Shown here piece by piece: positions 34,871 through 42,243 of a DNA stretch of 64,000 bases. Positions within the stretch are counted from its first letter, which is position 1, and every line of letters begins with the position of its first letter. Source of the stretch: an uncultured Bacilli bacterium (GTDB lineage: Bacteria > Bacillota_I > Bacilli_A > RF39 > UBA660); the NCBI GenBank assembly GCA_934120635.1, contig CAKOUR010000003.1, forward strand, positions 29,203-93,202, read 5' to 3'. The notes beneath the pieces are model-generated. The model made no database searches, was not told where the DNA came from, and saw only the letters and a list, made by a program, of their open reading frames with translations. Position numbers and translations under genes: made by a program.

Positions 34871-35437
34871 CTATTCGATTGGAATGCTAGCATAGTAATT
34901 TTTTCCATTTTTTTCGATTTCTGTTATTACTAGGTATGTATAATTATTAGAACTTGTTCCAATGTTTGCATCTTTAATATTATAGTAATTTATTATATAA
35001 TCTATATAATCTTTAAATGTTTCGTTATAGTTCGTAAAAATTTCGTTATATTCTTTGGAAGTTTCGTTAGTTGGATCTTTTTTTGGAGGTTTTAAAACAT
35101 TTTCATCATAGTATGTAAATACCATATTTTGTATATTATATAATTTTTTTAAAGTAGTACAAAAATCATCATTTAATTGACATGTTTCAGATTTTATTAA
35201 TTCTATAGTTTCTTTATTTTCGTGATTGTTTAGAAAATTATTTAAATCATTTTCTAATAAATTATTAATCATTTCTTTTGTTGCATAAAATGCATCAATA
35301 TCATGATATACTTCTCTTTCTTTATATTTTGAAAAAAGAGAATTAAAACTAGAATAAAACAATATCATTCCTGTTAAAATCACTGTTGAAGTGATAATTA
35401 CTTCTACTAACATGAATCCTTTATTATTTTTAGACAT
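34871..35437 (-). CDS. Type IV pilin-like / pseudopilin (188 aa)
   Basis: Prepilin signal MSKNNKG|FMLVE with Glu at +5 and a hydrophobic helix. Confidence 0.7.
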   Translation of the reverse strand: MSKNNKGFMLVEVIITSTVILTGMILFYSSFNSLFSKYKEREVYHDIDAFYATKEMINNLLENDLNNFLNNHENKETIELIKSETCQLNDDFCTTLKKLYNIQNMVFTYYDENVLKPPKKDPTNETSKEYNEIFTNYNETFKDYIDYIINYYNIKDANIGTSSNNYTYLVITEIEKNGKNYYASIPIE

Positions 35438-35524
35438 CTTTGTTTCACTACTCCTTGCTATTTTTATAAAACTATTATATAATAATTATAGTTTAAAGTA
35501 AAGAATAAAAAGGGAATGGGATTT

Positions 35525-36805
35525 ATGGCAGAAATTAATAAAGAAGATTTATCTACTGCTTCTAGTGTTGGAGCAACTAATTTTAATGATTTAGCTACAA
35601 AAAAAGTAATTAATTTTGAAACAACTCCAATTGTCGATATTGTAAATTATATCTTAGTAACTGCTTCTAAAAAGAATGCTAGTGATATTCATTTTGATCC
35701 AGCCGATAATCATATGAAAGTTAGGTTTCGTATTGATGGTAAGTTAGATACATTTATTATTGTTCCTAATACTGCTAAACAAAATTTAATTGCTAGATTG
35801 AAAATCATGGCAGGAATGAATATTACTGAAACTAGGCTTCCACAAGATGGAGCTATTCGTACAGTTATTGAAGGTCTTAGTTTAGATATGCGTGTTTCTT
35901 CCCTACCAACTAAACGTGGCGAGAAAATTGTTATTCGTATTATGGATTATTCAATGAGTTTAAAAGGTTTGGAATCTTTATGTTTTAATGATATTAATTA
36001 TAAAAAAATACTGAAAATGATTAGTGAACCTAATGGAATAATTTTGGTAACTGGGGCTACTGGTAGTGGTAAATCAACTACAGTTTATTCACTTCTTCAA
36101 AGATTAAATACCGAGGATACTAATTTAATTACAGTTGAGGATCCTGTTGAGATGGAAATTGAGGGAATGAATCAGGTTCAAGTTAATAGTGAAATAGGTC
36201 TTACTTTTGCTACAGTATTAAGAAGTATTTTAAGACAAGATCCTAATGTTATTATGATTGGAGAGATTCGTGATAGTGAAACTGCTCAAATTGCTGTTCG
36301 TGCTTCTATTACTGGACACTTGGTTTTATCTACTATTCACACCAATAATAGTCTTTCTACTATTGAACGATTATTGGATATGGATGTTGAAAGATATTTA
36401 CTTGCTAGTGCTTTAGAAGGTATTATTTCTCAAAAATTAGCTAGAAAACTTTGTGATAAATGTAAAAGACTAAGACCTGCAAATAATTATGAAAAAAACT
36501 TATTTAGAACTGTTTTAGGATTAGAAGTTAATAAAGTATATGAACCTGTTGGATGTCCAGAATGTAATTTTGGTTATAAAGGGAGAGTTGCTTTACATGA
36601 AGTTCTTCTAATTAATCAAGATATAAGAGATGCTATCAGTAATAATGTTTCTAAGGAAGATTTGAGAAAATTAGTTTATAGCAAAGATGTTATTACTATG
36701 GTACAAGATGGTTTTTATAAAGTTTTAGCGGGTTTTACAACTATTACAGAAGTTTTAAAACTAATTGATTTAGATGATGAGATTGAAGAAAAAAATCAAA
36801 AATAA
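35525..36805 (+). CDS. GspE/PilB/ComGA-family type IV filament assembly ATPase
   Basis: Walker A GATGSGKSTT, Asp box, Walker B IMIGEIRD, His box TGHLVLSTIHTN, tetracysteine CDKC...CPEC; start at the second ATG (SD AAGGGA 9 nt upstream). Confidence 0.85.
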   Translation: MAEINKEDLSTASSVGATNFNDLATKKVINFETTPIVDIVNYILVTASKKNASDIHFDPADNHMKVRFRIDGKLDTFIIVPNTAKQNLIARLKIMAGMNITETRLPQDGAIRTVIEGLSLDMRVSSLPTKRGEKIVIRIMDYSMSLKGLESLCFNDINYKKILKMISEPNGIILVTGATGSGKSTTVYSLLQRLNTEDTNLITVEDPVEMEIEGMNQVQVNSEIGLTFATVLRSILRQDPNVIMIGEIRDSETAQIAVRASITGHLVLSTIHTNNSLSTIERLLDMDVERYLLASALEGIISQKLARKLCDKCKRLRPANNYEKNLFRTVLGLEVNKVYEPVGCPECNFGYKGRVALHEVLLINQDIRDAISNNVSKEDLRKLVYSKDVITMVQDGFYKVLAGFTTITEVLKLIDLDDEIEEKNQK

Positions 36806-36836
36806 CATAGGGATTAACTATTTCCTATGTTATTTT
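36804..36836. terminator. Shared hairpin terminator between the convergent ATPase and nrdG genes
   Basis: AACATAGG / CCTATGTT perfect 8-bp stem, 12-nt loop, then ATTTTC on the plus strand. Confidence 0.55.
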
Positions 36837-37406
36837 CTATACAAATAGAAGATGTTTTTCACTTCTTCCTCTTTTTGAATTTAATTCTTGTTTTTGAACA
36901 GGAGTGTATAAAATCGTTTCTTTTTTTATTAAACTATTTTTTACATCTATTAATCTTTGATTCTTAGAGCCTCTAAATATTACATCATAACTTTTTTGCT
37001 GATAAATAAATTTACCATCTACTAAGATATCAATTTGTTTTAAAAAAGTTAATATATTTTGGTTCATTTTGCTTTTTTCTAATAATTCTTCAAACGTATA
37101 TCCAGTATAACACCATACATTCAAATCTTTTTGATGGCAATATTTTGCTAAGACAGAGCATTCTAATGACTGTTCCATTGGGTCGCCTCCGGAGAATGTT
37201 ATCCCATCTTGTCCTTCTAAAGTATCTATTTTCTTTTTTATATCTTCAATATCAACAAGAAACCCATTCTTATAAGAGTGGGTTTCTGGATTATGGCAAT
37301 AAGGACAATGATGAGGACATCCTTGAGTCCAAATAACGGTGCGGATACCTTCTCCATCTACAATGCTGTCCCTTTGTATTTCAGCAGTTGCTAATCTTAT
37401 TTTCAT
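36837..37406 (-). CDS. nrdG: Anaerobic ribonucleotide reductase activating protein
   Basis: 189 aa; CPHHCPYCHN radical SAM cluster motif, GGDP; last gene of the nrd operon. Confidence 0.9.
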   Translation of the reverse strand: MKIRLATAEIQRDSIVDGEGIRTVIWTQGCPHHCPYCHNPETHSYKNGFLVDIEDIKKKIDTLEGQDGITFSGGDPMEQSLECSVLAKYCHQKDLNVWCYTGYTFEELLEKSKMNQNILTFLKQIDILVDGKFIYQQKSYDVIFRGSKNQRLIDVKNSLIKKETILYTPVQKQELNSKRGRSEKHLLFV

Positions 37407-37408
37407 AA

Positions 37409-37585
37409 TTATTTTGTTGCTTCTAAAATTCCTTCTGTGCCATGTTTTACACGATCGCGTTCTTCAGCTCTTTTTCCATTATTGAATCTATCTACTGTTC
37501 CAACTAGATATCCTGTAATTCTTCTAATTCTTTCAAAACCAATTCCTTCTCCAATAGTTTTAACTTCTTTTTCTTCTGCTTTCAT
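37409..37585 (-). CDS. Stand-alone NrdD C-terminal glycyl-radical domain (58 aa)
   Basis: Own translation MKAEEKEVKTIGEGIGFERIRRITGYLVGTVDRFNNGKRAEERDRVKHGTEGILEATK; RxxGY glycyl-radical fingerprint; GAAGGA 8 nt upstream of the ATG; in frame with nrdD, separated from it by TAA plus 9 codons; below the ORF-track size cutoff. Confidence 0.75.
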   Translation of the reverse strand: MKAEEKEVKTIGEGIGFERIRRITGYLVGTVDRFNNGKRAEERDRVKHGTEGILEATK

Positions 37586-37612
37586 AAAATAATTCCTTCT
37601 TTCTTTTTTTTG

Positions 37613-39910
37613 TTAACAACATGCATTTTTCTTAAAGTCATTTACTTTTTCAACACTAACCCCTTCTCCAGCTTTACGTCCACATCCTGGACAAACATCT
37701 CCAATAATTCCCACATAACCGCATACTGGATCTCTATCAACTGGATGGTTAATTGCTGCATATCCCATATTATTTTCTTTCATTATACGCACAATTTTTT
37801 CAAAAGCATCTAAATTCTTAGTTGTATCTCCATCTAATTCTATATAACTAATATGTCCTGCATTTGTAAGAGCATGATATGGAGCTTCTTTTTTGATTTT
37901 GTTAATAATAGAAATATTATAATACACTGGTACATGGAATGAATTTGTATAGTATTCTCTATCAGTAACTCCTTTTATTTTTCCATAAATTACTTTGTCA
38001 ATGTTTATAAATCTACCACTTAGTCCTTCTGCTGGAGTTGCTAAACAAGTGAAATTCAAATTGTATTTTTCAGAATATTCATCGCATTTTTTTCTCATAA
38101 ATCCAATGATCTTTAACCCTAATTCTTGTGCTTCTTCACTTTCCCCGTGATGTTTACCTATTAGTGCTTTTAAACATTCTGCTAAACCGATAAAACCAAT
38201 ACTTAAAGTTCCATGCTTTAACACTTTTCTTAAGCGATCAGTTGGTTTTAACTTTTCTGAGTCAATCCATACACCTTGTTCTAATAAAAATGGGAAATTA
38301 TATAATCTTTTATTACATTGAATTTCAAATCTCTCTAGTAATTGTTCACAAACTAAATCCATTAATTCTCCTAACTCTTTATAGAAGCCATCCAAGTCTG
38401 TTTTTTCGTTTGTAACAATTCCATGTTTAATACCTAATCTAGGTAAATTTATTGAAGTAAAGGATAGGTTACCTCTTCCTGGTGTAATTGCTTTGTTAGG
38501 ATCTACTACGTTTCCAATTACTCTTGTTCTACATCCCATATAACATACTTCTGTATTATAATCCCCTTTATAATATTGAGCATTAAATGGCGAATCCATA
38601 AATGAAAAATTAGGAAATAGTCTTTTGGCAGATACTTTACATGATAATTTAAATAAATCATAGTTAGGGTCACCTGGATTATAATTAATTCCTTCTTTAA
38701 TTTTAAAAATTGAAATTGGGAAAATAGGTGTTTCGTTTTTACCTAATCCTGCATCAACAGATAATAAATAATTTTTCATTACCATTCTTCCTTCTGCTGA
38801 TGTATCTGTTCCAAAATTAATTGAAGAAAATGGTACTTGTGCTCCTGCTCTAGAATGCATTGTATTTAAATTATGTACAAATGCTTCCATTGCTTGATAA
38901 GTAGCTCTATCTGTTTTTGCAATAGCGGTATCATATGCTTTTTCAAAGATTCTTCTAACTTCTTTACTTTCTTTATAGAAATTTTCAAAAATTCCAACAT
39001 CTACTGTAATAGAATTTAATTTATCTATTGCTTGAACTAATTTGTCCATATTTATGAAACTGATAAAATCAGTAAAATCAAGTAGTTCATATAATGCTTG
39101 TTTATATTCTTTTTTAAAAGTTTTTAATACACCAGGTGCCATATAGAAGTCAAATGCTGGAATACTTTGGCCACCATGTTGATCATTTTGATTAGATTGT
39201 ACTGCTATTGCTGCCAATGCACTATAAGCGTTAATTGATTGTGGTTCTCTTAAATGTCCATGACCTGTAGAAAAACCATTTTTAAATAACTTATTTAAAT
39301 CAATTTGCATACAAGTGGTAGTTCCCATTGCTAAGAAATCCATATCATGAATATGAATATCCCCATTTTCATGTGCTTCAGCAAATTTCTTTTTCATTAA
39401 ATATGCCTTTGCAAATTCTTTTGATACTGTCGAACCATATTGAAGCATTGTTCCCATAGCACTGTTACCATCAATATTAGCATTTTCTCTTTTAGCATCT
39501 TCTTCAAATGCCGATTTTAATCCTAGTCCTTCTAATGATTTTAGAAATTTATGCATTTTCTTTTCATCAGAAAACAATTTTCTTGATTTATCTCTTCTTT
39601 CACGATAATCAGAGAATGCTTCGTATACATCTTCATATTTGTTTTTTTTCAGCATTTCTTCAATTAAATCTTGGATTTCTTCTATTTTTATTTTTTCAGC
39701 ATCTTTATATTTTTTACAAATTTCTTTAATGACGCTTTGATACACTTTCTGAACATCTTTAGCACTATATTTTGATTCTTCTTCTTCATGTACTGTTCCA
39801 TCAAATCCTTTTTTTATTGCAATTGCAACCTTTGTAGTATCAAACGAAACTTTTTTTCCATTTCTTTTTACTACTTTTAGGTTGGCTATTATATCTTCAT
39901 TTATTGTCAT
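37613..39910 (-). CDS. nrdD: Anaerobic ribonucleoside-triphosphate reductase, large part lacking the glycyl-radical tail
   Basis: 765 aa; ATP-cone N-terminus, class III RNR barrel, C-terminal Cys cluster VCGYVGIIGDVCPGCG; ends at TAA before the glycyl-radical segment. Confidence 0.9.
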   Translation of the reverse strand: MTINEDIIANLKVVKRNGKKVSFDTTKVAIAIKKGFDGTVHEEEESKYSAKDVQKVYQSVIKEICKKYKDAEKIKIEEIQDLIEEMLKKNKYEDVYEAFSDYRERRDKSRKLFSDEKKMHKFLKSLEGLGLKSAFEEDAKRENANIDGNSAMGTMLQYGSTVSKEFAKAYLMKKKFAEAHENGDIHIHDMDFLAMGTTTCMQIDLNKLFKNGFSTGHGHLREPQSINAYSALAAIAVQSNQNDQHGGQSIPAFDFYMAPGVLKTFKKEYKQALYELLDFTDFISFINMDKLVQAIDKLNSITVDVGIFENFYKESKEVRRIFEKAYDTAIAKTDRATYQAMEAFVHNLNTMHSRAGAQVPFSSINFGTDTSAEGRMVMKNYLLSVDAGLGKNETPIFPISIFKIKEGINYNPGDPNYDLFKLSCKVSAKRLFPNFSFMDSPFNAQYYKGDYNTEVCYMGCRTRVIGNVVDPNKAITPGRGNLSFTSINLPRLGIKHGIVTNEKTDLDGFYKELGELMDLVCEQLLERFEIQCNKRLYNFPFLLEQGVWIDSEKLKPTDRLRKVLKHGTLSIGFIGLAECLKALIGKHHGESEEAQELGLKIIGFMRKKCDEYSEKYNLNFTCLATPAEGLSGRFINIDKVIYGKIKGVTDREYYTNSFHVPVYYNISIINKIKKEAPYHALTNAGHISYIELDGDTTKNLDAFEKIVRIMKENNMGYAAINHPVDRDPVCGYVGIIGDVCPGCGRKAGEGVSVEKVNDFKKNACC

Positions 39911-39942
39911 TTACTTCACTCCTTATTTCTTATCACAAATTC

Positions 39943-39972
39943 ATTATACATTTATCTGTGTTGTTTTGTCAA
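39943..39972 (-). promoter_or_regulatory. Sigma-A promoter of the nrd operon
   Basis: Minus strand TTGACA (39972-39967), 18-nt spacer, TATAAT (39948-39943); AAGGAGTGA SD downstream. Confidence 0.6.
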
Positions 39973-39991
39973 CATAAAAAACGAACATTTT

Positions 39992-40065
39992 GTATTTTTT
40001 TATTTTTTTGTATTTTTTTATTTTTTGTTATTGTTATTTTTTTGATTTTTTATTTTTTTGATTTT
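39992..40065. repeat. T-tract (A-tract on the coding strand) tandem repeats upstream of the nrd promoter
   Basis: GTATTTTTTTATTTTTT repeated twice in tandem, then TGATTTTTTATTTTTT about 1.4 times; T6-7 runs recur every 8-10 bp. Confidence 0.6.
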
Positions 40066-40412
40066 AATATTTTGTTTCTTATTTTCTATAAATCCTTTAT
40101 TTTATTGACTTTTTATTTATTTTTTTAGTTTTTGTATTCTAAAAAAAGTTGTATTTTTTCGCTTTTTTGTTTTTTCTTATTTCTTTATTTTTTTATTTTT
40201 AACTTTTTTGAATAGCACTCTTTTTACTACTGTTCGTATTTTTTTATACTCTTTATAGTTAATTTTTTTGATAAAATATTGATTTATATATCTTAAGTTA
40301 GTTACCCTATTATTTAGTAGTGTTTGTATTTGTTTTTTTTTAATTCTACTTAAAAATGAAGAAATCATTTCTTCTATTTTGAGTTTTATCCATAAAAAAA
40401 AGAAAATGTTTT

Positions 40413-41369
40413 TTATGAATCTAGATTTTCTATTTTATAAAATTCTTGATTATCAACAAGTAACATCACTGTTTTAACATTATAATTATCTTTCATAGAA
40501 AGACCTAATGTGTAAATTACCTCTTCTAAAATATGGTTATTATTATTGCTAAGAATAGCATTATTAAAATTTAATTTTAATTGTTCTTCTTCTAAAGAAT
40601 AATCTTTTAATACTACATTAGCATCTAAATAACTCATTAAATTTGTTTCGGATATTGGTGAGGTTGATAATTCATCTATAATAATTTTAATTTTATCATT
40701 TCCTTTATTATTAATATATTTAGTTATTGGTACATAATACTTATAATCATTTTGTTGACAGACATAGTAAACCGTATATGATTCAATAGAAGATGTTTTA
40801 GTTAAATCATATTTTTTATTTATTCCATACTTTTTATCTTGAGGAAAAGTAATATTTTTTTTACTATGTGGGAGATTTTCTAGAGTTTTTCCTTCTACTT
40901 GAATTATAATTTTGTCGATTCCATCAATACTAGTGGAGGAATATATAATAGATTCTATCATTTTTTCCTCTAATGAAGCATTGATATTTAATAATTCTTT
41001 TGAAAAATTTATAGTAAGTACTTTATTTTCTAAATTTAAATCTAATATTTCTGTTCCAGGCGGTATGATTGCTCGAAAACCATCAGGAATAATGTAACTT
41101 TTTTCTCCATCTATAATTAATGCTTTTATTACATCTAATGCTATTTCTTTTGTATCTAAATTTTCGCTTTTAATGGTAGTTCTTGCTATATAACCATTTC
41201 TATCTAATAAGTAAATAACTTCTTTTTTGTTATTATATTCATATTCTAAACTTGTATTTTTTATTTTATAAGATATTTTTTCATTATTAGGCATTATATA
41301 CAAAAGAAAAAGAGAAAGTAATGCTAATGATGTTATCATAATTTTTCTTGTATAAATTTTTTTTAACAT
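40413..41369 (-). CDS. gerM: GerM-like sporulation/germination protein (two GerMN-like domains)
   Basis: 318 aa; N-terminal anchor, then two repeats of the pattern ...ALDVIKALIIDG...PPGTEILDLNLENKVLTINFSKEL... Confidence 0.55.
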   Translation of the reverse strand: MLKKIYTRKIMITSLALLSLFLLYIMPNNEKISYKIKNTSLEYEYNNKKEVIYLLDRNGYIARTTIKSENLDTKEIALDVIKALIIDGEKSYIIPDGFRAIIPPGTEILDLNLENKVLTINFSKELLNINASLEEKMIESIIYSSTSIDGIDKIIIQVEGKTLENLPHSKKNITFPQDKKYGINKKYDLTKTSSIESYTVYYVCQQNDYKYYVPITKYINNKGNDKIKIIIDELSTSPISETNLMSYLDANVVLKDYSLEEEQLKLNFNNAILSNNNNHILEEVIYTLGLSMKDNYNVKTVMLLVDNQEFYKIENLDS

Positions 41370-41461
41370 ACTATCACCTAATAATATATATGAATTAACA
41401 AAAAGAAAAATACTTATCTAAAAAAATATTACTTTAAGTATTTTTCTAAATAAGTATTATT

Positions 41462-41665
41462 TTATAATTTTATACTTCCTAATCGTATTAATTCTACAAC
41501 AGCTTGGGCCCGACCTTTTACTCCTAATTTTTGCATAGCATTTGAAATGTGATTTCTTACTGTTTTCTCACTTATTCCTAGCACATTTCCAATTTCTTTT
41601 GTTGTTTTATTTTCTACTAATAAGAAAAAAACTTCTTCTTCTCTTTTGGTTAATATTTTTTTCAT
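41462..41665 (-). CDS. gerE: LuxR-type HTH spore coat regulator GerE
   Basis: 67 aa consisting only of the LuxR C-terminal HTH: LTKREEEVFFLL...TKEIGNVLGISEKTVRNHISNAMQKLGV. Confidence 0.78.
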   Translation of the reverse strand: MKKILTKREEEVFFLLVENKTTKEIGNVLGISEKTVRNHISNAMQKLGVKGRAQAVVELIRLGSIKL

Positions 41666-41705
41666 ATCAATTCCTCACTTCCCAAGGGTGGGATACAATC
41701 AATAG

Positions 41706-41733
41706 TATTGTATGTGAAGAATTAATTTAGGTT
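41706..41733 (-). promoter_or_regulatory. Candidate sigma-K-type promoter for gerE
   Basis: Minus strand AC, 16-nt spacer, CATACAATA (consensus AC-N16/17-CATAnnnTA). Confidence 0.35.
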
Positions 41734-41739
41734 CATAAT

Positions 41740-42243
41740 TTATGATTGAAATTGTACTGAAATATACATTTTTTTATTAAATTCTTCTTGAACAGTTCGC
41801 ATAATATTATTTGCTAATGATTTTGAGTTTTCACATTTATCTACAACTATTTTTATGGAATTATCTTCAATCTTAGCAAATGTTTCACATTTGTATGTAG
41901 ATTTTAGTTTTTTCTCAATTGACTCTTCTGTTCCACTATTTGCTTGAATTGTTTTAATTTTTTCATAAATTGTATTTTTTTCCTGTGAAGTAGTGTCTTT
42001 ATTAGTTAATTTATCTTGTAGTTCTTCTAATGTATCATTTGTTTTTGAAGTATTTTCTACCTTTAATGCTGAAATAGCATCGCTTTCTTCTATTGAAGCA
42101 TTTACATTATCTTTTTTATCTAAATTTGTTTGAGCGTTAGTAGATGCTGCTAATAAATCATTTGGCATAGTGACATAATAAATACTAAGTACTAATACTA
42201 AACTAAATAATGTTAAAAACCATAAATTTTTCTTATTCATCAT
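41740..42243 (-). CDS. spoIIIAH: Stage III sporulation protein AH
   Basis: 167 aa; N-terminus KKNLWFLTLFSLVLVLSIYYV and C-terminus EKIKTIQANSGTEESIEKKLKS...IKIVVDK...VQEEF align to B. subtilis SpoIIIAH. Confidence 0.75.
   Translation of the reverse strand: MMNKKNLWFLTLFSLVLVLSIYYVTMPNDLLAASTNAQTNLDKKDNVNASIEESDAISALKVENTSKTNDTLEELQDKLTNKDTTSQEKNTIYEKIKTIQANSGTEESIEKKLKSTYKCETFAKIEDNSIKIVVDKCENSKSLANNIMRTVQEEFNKKMYISVQFQS

Follow-up and report, generated by a model that had tools for sequence, protein, structure and literature searches.

Among glycyl radical enzymes, class III ribonucleotide reductase (RNR) is the textbook example of one that keeps its radical at the C-terminal end of its own chain. 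In the DNA studied here, a 64,000-nt stretch of contig CAKOUR010000003.1 (assembly GCA_934120635.1, positions 29,203 to 93,202) from an uncultured Bacilli bacterium, hereafter called the window, the nrdD gene of such an enzyme stops before the radical glycine is reached, and the glycine loop is encoded by a small open reading frame (ORF) lying between nrdD and the activase gene nrdG. The locus therefore raises the question of whether nrdD is damaged, recoded, or one half of an enzyme made in two pieces. Comparison with related loci favored the last answer: with a probability of roughly 0.85, the three genes encode a genuine, obligate two-polypeptide class III RNR, whose radical loop would be supplied in trans and activated by NrdG.

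The two chains encoded at the nrdD junction

All features of the operon lie on the minus strand. The large-subunit gene (37613..39910; 765 aa plus TAA), assigned from the ORF list and a profile match, terminates with ...CPGCGRKAGEGVSVEKVNDFKKNACC, followed by the stop codon TAA at 37613-37615. It is separated from the small gene by a 27-nt spacer (37586..37612; C-A8-GAAAGAAGGAATTATTTT), which holds the A8 run (37604-37611) and the Shine-Dalgarno sequence AGAAGGA (GAAGGA at 37594-37599), 8 nt before the ATG of the small ORF; no alternative start codon was found in these 27 nt. The small-subunit gene (37409..37585, with the ATG at 37585) encodes 58 aa plus TAA, the protein being MKAEEKEVKTIGEGIGFERIRRITGYLVGTVDRFNNGKRAEERDRVKHGTEGILEATK, and the codon of the predicted radical glycine, Gly25, is located at 37511-37513 within RRITGY. 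The ATG of nrdG (36837..37406), which encodes a radical-SAM activase of 189 aa (TIGR02491, 142.8 bits; cut-off 126.1), follows 2 nt past the stop codon of the small ORF. A first-pass annotation made from the sequence had described the TAA, the nine-codon spacer, the A8 run, GAAGGA, the 58-codon ORF and the 2-nt gap before nrdG, and every one of these details is present.

Profile searches showed that the large chain matches positions 3-713 of the 746-position NrdD model NF005497 (1018 bits, cut-off 764), and that it also exceeds the cut-offs of PF13597 (632.6 bits, cut-off 26.2) and TIGR02487 (572 bits, cut-off 326). An ATP-cone (aa 12-108) is followed by the RNR barrel and a putative Zn ribbon (..DPVCGY..CPGCG), and the large chain aligns with Prevotella copri NrdD (8P23) up to Ser704, where the CPKCG motif of the Zn ribbon of that enzyme ends. 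By the same alignment, Cys200, Cys460 and Asn481 correspond to P. copri Cys171, Cys416 and Asn435, respectively, and the HxHD phosphate motif appears as HIHD at 186-189. This motif and the three residues were invariant in an alignment of 26 rows (A3), comprising the window protein, 8 split large chains and 17 fused NrdDs. The residue roles, namely the thiyl-radical Cys of the finger loop, the Cys of the first barrel strand and the Asn of the formate type, follow a previous study of NrdD (PMC11226230), in which the glycyl-radical domain of the P. copri enzyme spans residues 676-739 and consists of the Zn site, the buried Gly loop, a short helix and a tail. The RxxGY motif is missing from the large chain, which ends ...GEGVSVEKVNDFKKNACC, and is encoded as RRITG25Y in the separate 58-aa ORF; the radical glycine expected of a class III RNR is hence lacking in the large chain alone and present in the two chains taken together. 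Since the catalytic residues are kept but RxxGY is not, the large chain is predicted to be catalytically complete apart from the glycyl radical, which has to come from outside it.

According to the alignments, the large chain closes with a tail of 20 aa (aa 746-765; 37616..37675; KAGEGVSVEKVNDFKKNACC), which contains no radical glycine and is absent from the fused relatives. Its conserved element, EGV-S/P-phi-E-K/R-phi, resembles the N-terminal part of the small subunit and has a Cys pair behind it, with at least two Cys among the last 8 tail residues in 49/79 of the split loci described below (e.g., ..NACC, NSCNC, CDCR). Such a Cys-pair tail is found despite the formate type of the enzyme (Asn481), for which a redox tail should be unnecessary, and a few of the small chains likewise have Cys-rich C-terminal ends. 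The putative Zn ribbon (37700-37725, aa 722-743) shows three aligned Cys (DPVC730GY..C740PGC743), whereas that of P. copri NrdD has four (RCLDCGY..CPKCG); the three-Cys pattern is common to the fused relatives from Erysipelotrichales.

The small ORF matched positions 710-745 of NF005497 and aligned with residues 707-738 of 8P23, including the loop of the radical Gly711. On its own it scored 45 bits, under the NCBIfam cut-offs, and covers just the last 30-36 positions of the NrdD models. PF13597, at the NrdD C-terminus, was its only Pfam match, and PF01228, the Gly_radical family of the pyruvate formate-lyase (PFL) type, gave none. By these alignments, the split point lies within the glycyl-radical domain, past the Zn ribbon and ahead of the Gly loop. 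The homologues of the small chain are free-standing proteins of 44-83 aa with a near-invariant core (GEGVxFERIRRITGYLVGTxDRFNNGKRAEExDRVKH). The signature GxGV-x-FERI, whose GxGV occupies aa 12-15 of the window protein directly before FERIRRITGY, was present in 80/80 operonic small proteins, 73/76 viral ones and 109/114 cluster representatives, and in 0/114 fused Erysipelotrichales NrdDs. The 120 best database homologues were all separate proteins of 56-83 aa (77-100% identity), some of them present on more than 100 contigs (up to 179 each), and a library of 50%-identity clusters gave 683 clusters at E <= 1e-10, the top 150 all being 52-196 aa. No dedicated Pfam, NCBIfam or PHROG family was found for the small protein, its PHROG matches being solely the C-termini of NrdD families, and the databases name it "anaerobic ribonucleoside-triphosphate reductase", "hypothetical protein" or "putative uncharacterized protein". 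It is also carried by cultured Fibrobacter succinogenes (RefSeq WP_041260231.1, 48 aa, on a 3.84-Mb contig). Over the 37-codon core, the mean proportion of synonymous differences (pS) was 0.72, near saturation, that of nonsynonymous differences (pN) was 0.09, and the median dN/dS was ~0.07, showing that the small ORF is under strong purifying selection.

Conservation of the split and alternative explanations

To place the junction among its relatives, one genome per GTDB species was scanned, which gave at least 598 loci, and the best 80 were analyzed. These came mostly from uncultured gut Bacilli ("Tenericutes", Clostridium sp. CAG:302 and CAG:417, Candidatus Coprosoma, Pelethosoma) and included Fibrobacter succinogenes, other Fibrobacter, Oscillospiraceae, Hydrogenoanaerobacterium and other Clostridia. 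The Gly loop was encoded in its own stop-to-stop ORF of 51-101 codons in 80/80 loci, with a large nrdD ORF (~765-855 aa) directly upstream in 78/80, the upstream sequence being missing in the remaining two. An nrdG-like ORF was located downstream in 71/81 loci, and in 69 of these its position ranged from a 23-nt overlap to a 12-nt gap. The small protein of the window itself is present on 16 contigs, and five contigs, each assembled independently and from different samples, agree in all 57 bases at the junction, A8 run and TAA included.

The first-pass annotation had offered three explanations for the interrupted gene: an error or recent nonsense mutation, stop-codon readthrough, and a two-piece RNR. 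On the first, the TAA would have come from faulty sequencing or assembly, or from a nonsense mutation that arose recently in this strain, and nrdD would be a pseudogene or in truth one gene. A lone in-frame TAA beside an A8 homopolymer is indeed an error-prone type of site, but the same junction recurs in the five assemblies, the split recurs in all 80 species-level genomes, whose spacers differ greatly, the lengths of the 120 top-ranked large-chain homologues all fall within 764-769 aa, and the small ORF has the low dN/dS given above. The identity of the five assemblies, the split across species and the purifying selection rule out a pseudogene, and we give this explanation next to no weight. 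Programmed recoding, in which ribosomes would read through the TAA, slip on the A8 run or bypass part of the message, would yield a fused chain of ~833 aa, and the layout of the window invites it, as the two ORFs share a frame with 9 sense codons between them and A8 follows the stop. With nrdD as the reference, the small ORF occupies frame 0 in 39 loci, +1 in 21 and +2 in 19, so that frame 0 is the commonest (39/79), but 40/79 relatives are out of frame, among them the closest relatives of the window (L001, L002 and L018). Moreover, the spacing between the nrdD stop and the small-ORF start varies widely, the extremes being an 11-nt overlap and a gap of 175 nt, with 73/79 loci at or below 37 nt, and all three stop codons are used (TAA 48, TAG 30, TGA 1 among 79 loci). 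The start codon of the small ORF is ATG in 79/81 loci, and a Shine-Dalgarno sequence of at least 4 nt stands 4-18 nt upstream of it in 95% of 80 loci, compared with 17% at control positions chosen randomly inside nrdD; for at least 5 nt, the values are 85% and 5%. This sequence is the sole conserved element of the spacer, and an Rfam scan of 35000-42000 at E <= 0.1 gave no match. Furthermore, the small gene occurs on its own in phages, as described below. Aligning the related loci, which had been proposed as a check, thus showed a separate stop that is kept through changes of codon and a ribosome-binding site that is kept nearly everywhere, and readthrough, frameshifting and bypassing are rejected as general mechanisms of the family. 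Because the relatives vary in frame, spacer and stop codon, the in-frame layout and the A8 run of this window are best read as incidental. A minor readthrough product may be made in this strain; recoding as the explanation of the locus is very unlikely.

The third explanation, a two-piece RNR whose radical peptide is translated on its own, agrees with the comparative evidence throughout. The operon would then specify a formate-type class III RNR in which the large chain supplies the ATP-cone, the substrate barrel, the thiyl-radical Cys loop and the putative Zn ribbon, and the small chain supplies the buried Gly loop RRITG25Y together with the short helix and tail that cover the top of the barrel in single-chain enzymes. 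NrdG would take a hydrogen from Gly25 of the small chain, either free or docked, after which the small chain would dock in the barrel of the large chain beside Cys460 and give the radical at each turnover. NrdG can act on a single-chain enzyme only once the glycyl-radical domain has flipped out of the core (PMC12662201), and in P. copri NrdD this domain is highly mobile (PMC11226230), which makes a mechanism in trans plausible. The sequences themselves show the gene order and its conservation, separate translation signals, purifying selection and retained catalytic residues; from these we infer that the chains assemble in trans, that NrdG activates the peptide and that the enzyme is active.

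Two further explanations accept two separate products and differ in what becomes of them. The small protein might be no subunit at all but a regulator or decoy, acting for example by titration of NrdG, with a large chain that is inactive, has another function or receives its radical from elsewhere. The subunit role is a prediction, and orphan copies in phages could in principle inhibit the host enzyme instead of helping it; however, the large chain conserves every catalytic residue and the ATP-cone, which would be pointless unless it received a glycyl radical. The small chain, for its part, retains the whole invariant Gly loop and the next helix, which contact the barrel in 8P23, and all three genes sit closely together in a single operon. 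We consider a regulator or decoy unlikely. Alternatively, intein-like trans-splicing or another ligation might join the chains after translation and restore a single-chain NrdD, an idea to which the pieces lend themselves in that they are neighboring segments of one protein. The extra segments (~20 aa in the large tail and ~16 aa at the small N-terminus) nevertheless fall short of the length of split-intein halves, searches of Pfam and NCBIfam matched neither an intein nor a Hint domain, and the tail sequences vary among lineages, so this scenario is extremely improbable. Several points weigh against the two-polypeptide enzyme itself. The lists of 80 are the closest matches to the window peptide and so give no share of all NrdDs; the enzyme is known here from genes, with the small protein, the complex and the activity all predicted; an AlphaFold2 model of the concatenated chains, based on A3, had a mean predicted local distance difference test score of 58.5, with residues 747-823 below 50, and being uninformative it gave no structural support for docking of the chains. 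The over-representation of frame 0 (39/79) is a further such point, which may reflect related lineages having one common junction.

Operon context, origin and phage-borne copies

On the minus strand, ~33 nt upstream of the nrdD start, a sigma-70-type promoter-like site (TTGACA-18 nt-TATAAT; 39943..39972) matches the consensus at 12/12 positions and is the sole such match within 36600-40450; it is likely the promoter of the operon. The same consensus scan found no convincing internal promoter between nrdD and the small ORF. On the 5′ side of the promoter-like site lie ~230 nt of very A-rich repetitive DNA with AAAAAATA-type units (39943-40200 region), and beyond this stretch is a lysine-rich ORF of 63 aa (40177-40368). 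At the other end of the operon, the TIGR02491 match of NrdG (36837-37406) stops at residue 156, which corresponds to the last position of the 154-position model, leaving ~33 C-terminal residues unmatched; relatives from the Bacilli clade are similar, with 181-192 aa. Neither a second copy of the small gene or of nrdD nor any tRNA gene was found in the 64-kb window. Reassignment of a stop codon was considered and ruled out, as TAA, TAG and TGA each end long ORFs in the window (34, 3 and 2, respectively). In one metagenome assembly from the same species (L237; ENA ERZ28616226, 1176-3473), nrdD is further broken after the ATP-cone into 108 aa and 647 aa, perhaps through misassembly or as a variant of that strain.

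Among fused enzymes, the closest are the NrdDs of Erysipelotrichales (Coprobacillus, Thomasclavelia, Allocoprobacillus), which are ~767 aa long and ~57-58% identical, and whose junction reads CPxCGRxExEHxGFERIRRITGY. Relative to these, the split locus has ~29 extra codons, consisting of the ~20-aa tail of the large chain and ~16 N-terminal residues of the small chain. The large tail (GEGVSVEKV...) resembles the start of the small chain (GEGIGFERI...), and MAFFT places the fused GFERIRRI segment onto the tail of the large chain. The split junction resembles a fused gene with ~29 codons inserted, in which the GEGV-x-phi-E-K/R-phi segment is duplicated. This likeness suggests that the split arose by a partial tandem duplication at the junction, after which a stop codon, a Shine-Dalgarno sequence and an ATG would have been acquired. 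In a crude neighbor-joining tree of the barrel region, the NrdD of the window falls in a monophyletic clade of uncultured Bacilli (76-83% identity) in which all members are split, and the other split lineages (Fibrobacter, Clostridia and two phage loci; ~56-60% identity) are mixed among fused ones, which suggests several fission or fusion events, or horizontal transfer.

A search of IMG/VR with the window peptide gave 443 relatives, of which the best 80 were examined (L081-L160, L161-L234), using up to 10 kb of phage sequence per side (mean locus 13.7 kb, several being the whole contig) and detecting nrdD and nrdG by tblastn at E <= 1e-3. The results revealed 74 cases of the small gene alone, 4 fused NrdDs and 2 complete split operons; in the 74 cases, neither nrdD nor nrdG was detected by tblastn within up to 10 kb of the small gene. 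Examples of the orphan gene are L086 (3992-4159), L090 (3998-4135) and L085 (4004-4168). Genes for endolysins, holin-like proteins or terminases frequently adjoin it, with endolysin genes directly downstream in L085 and L090, and its neighbors include genes for a large terminase, a DNA methyltransferase and 3′-phosphoadenosine-5′-phosphosulfate (PAPS)-reductase-like proteins. Among cultured phages in GenBank and INPHARED, none with the small gene was found, the only matches being six unannotated "Bacteriophage sp." contigs from human feces. One of the complete split operons, on a 167-kb contig (L107/L186; IMGVR_UViG_3300045988_167296), has two 93-aa ORFs between its halves. In some viral loci, FERIRRITGY is found inside longer ORFs of 97-212 aa with unrelated extensions (L081-L083, 3758-4396; L120, 3842-4135; L146, 3830-4198), and GxGV is absent from L120 and L146.

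The orphan phage copies show that the peptide is maintained without a tethered partner, which fits an action in trans. A more far-reaching proposal, which we put forward tentatively and hold to be possible rather than probable, is that the small chain serves as an exchangeable "radical cartridge", charged by NrdG off the enzyme and swapped after cleavage by O2 or loss of the radical, and that the phage copies, placed beside lysis or moron genes, sustain the anaerobic deoxynucleoside triphosphate supply of the host during infection. O2 would then destroy the small chain, which could be replaced without remaking the 765-aa body.

Relation to known systems and implications

The chains of the window belong to the same fold family as single-chain NrdD and its activase (P. 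copri 8P23, phage T4 1H78, Streptococcus thermophilus 9D3X), with which they share the ATP-cone, the Cys/Cys/Asn set of the formate type, a putative Zn ribbon, the RITGY glycyl loop and the adjacent activase gene. Unlike single-chain NrdD, they carry the glycyl loop on a separate, independently translated polypeptide (44-64 aa across the split loci) and have the additional ~20-aa large tail and ~16-aa small N-terminus with GxGV. A closer functional parallel had been drawn by the first-pass annotation with GrcA/YfiD, which is likewise a small free-standing protein consisting essentially of the glycyl-radical segment of a glycyl radical enzyme, with presumed radical-SAM activation and insertion into the large chain in trans. 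The small chain differs from it in being homologous to the NrdD C-terminus and not to PF01228, and with 58 aa here it is far shorter than GrcA (127 aa). In addition, since the large partner has no Gly loop of its own, the operonic small chain would be obligate and would not replace a damaged loop as GrcA does. The analogy is therefore apt for the mechanism and fails for the notion of a spare. The duplicated segment at the junction is reminiscent of the beta-strand overlap between YfiD and O2-cleaved PFL (PMC13450708), and according to a 2026 review, spare-part proteins are known for formate lyases only.

RNR catalytic subunits divided over two adjacent genes do have precedents in other classes. 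In the class II enzyme of Pseudomonas aeruginosa, the catalytic subunit comes from two adjacent genes, and the products NrdJa and NrdJb must assemble (as cited in PMC9669993). The locus of the window is like this pair and like NrdA-a/NrdA-b of Aeromonas phage Aeh1 in being split over adjacent genes, but these examples belong to other RNR classes, are split at other positions and do not have the radical-storing residue on a mini-protein. The class Ia split of Aeh1 was caused by the insertion of a homing-endonuclease gene, whereas the window has its 27-nt spacer and no inserted gene, in line with the short spacers (<=37 nt) of 73/79 loci; among the examined loci, only the viral L107 has ORFs between the halves. 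The combination of a barrel with very small partners from the same operon also recalls the beta and gamma subunits of benzylsuccinate synthase and the gamma subunit of 4-hydroxyphenylacetate decarboxylase, in which the radical stays on the large chain, unlike here, where it would be on the small one. The small subunits of those enzymes are Fe-S or regulatory proteins (PMC12590467; PMC13450708). No description of a split or two-subunit NrdD was found in searches of open-access papers and bioRxiv, which returned single-chain NrdD, GrcA/YfiD and the split class II enzyme, in agreement with the earlier statement that no two-piece class III RNR had been described. The loci analyzed here thus apparently represent a widespread, undescribed two-polypeptide variant of class III RNR. 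A large-scale RNR phylogeny dropped proteins shorter than 400 aa (PMC9531940), and surveys of this kind would score split enzymes as ordinary NrdD and overlook the small gene.

If the chains assemble as proposed, the radical-bearing loop of a class III RNR can be a separate gene product of ~6 kDa. The small chain would then be a natural minimal substrate of NrdG and would offer a handle on how the domain leaves the barrel and returns to it, a point of mechanism still unsettled for every glycyl radical enzyme; the presence of the small protein in cultured Fibrobacter succinogenes makes the idea of a two-piece enzyme directly testable. For strict anaerobes of the gut and rumen, the arrangement may provide a repair route during recovery from oxygen damage. 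The orphan phage copies would constitute a previously unrecognized auxiliary gene. Should the small chain in fact act as an exchangeable cartridge, class III RNR would have a spare-part system parallel to GrcA for PFL and to cyanophage psbA for photosystem II, and the phage copies would define a new class of phage auxiliary metabolic gene.

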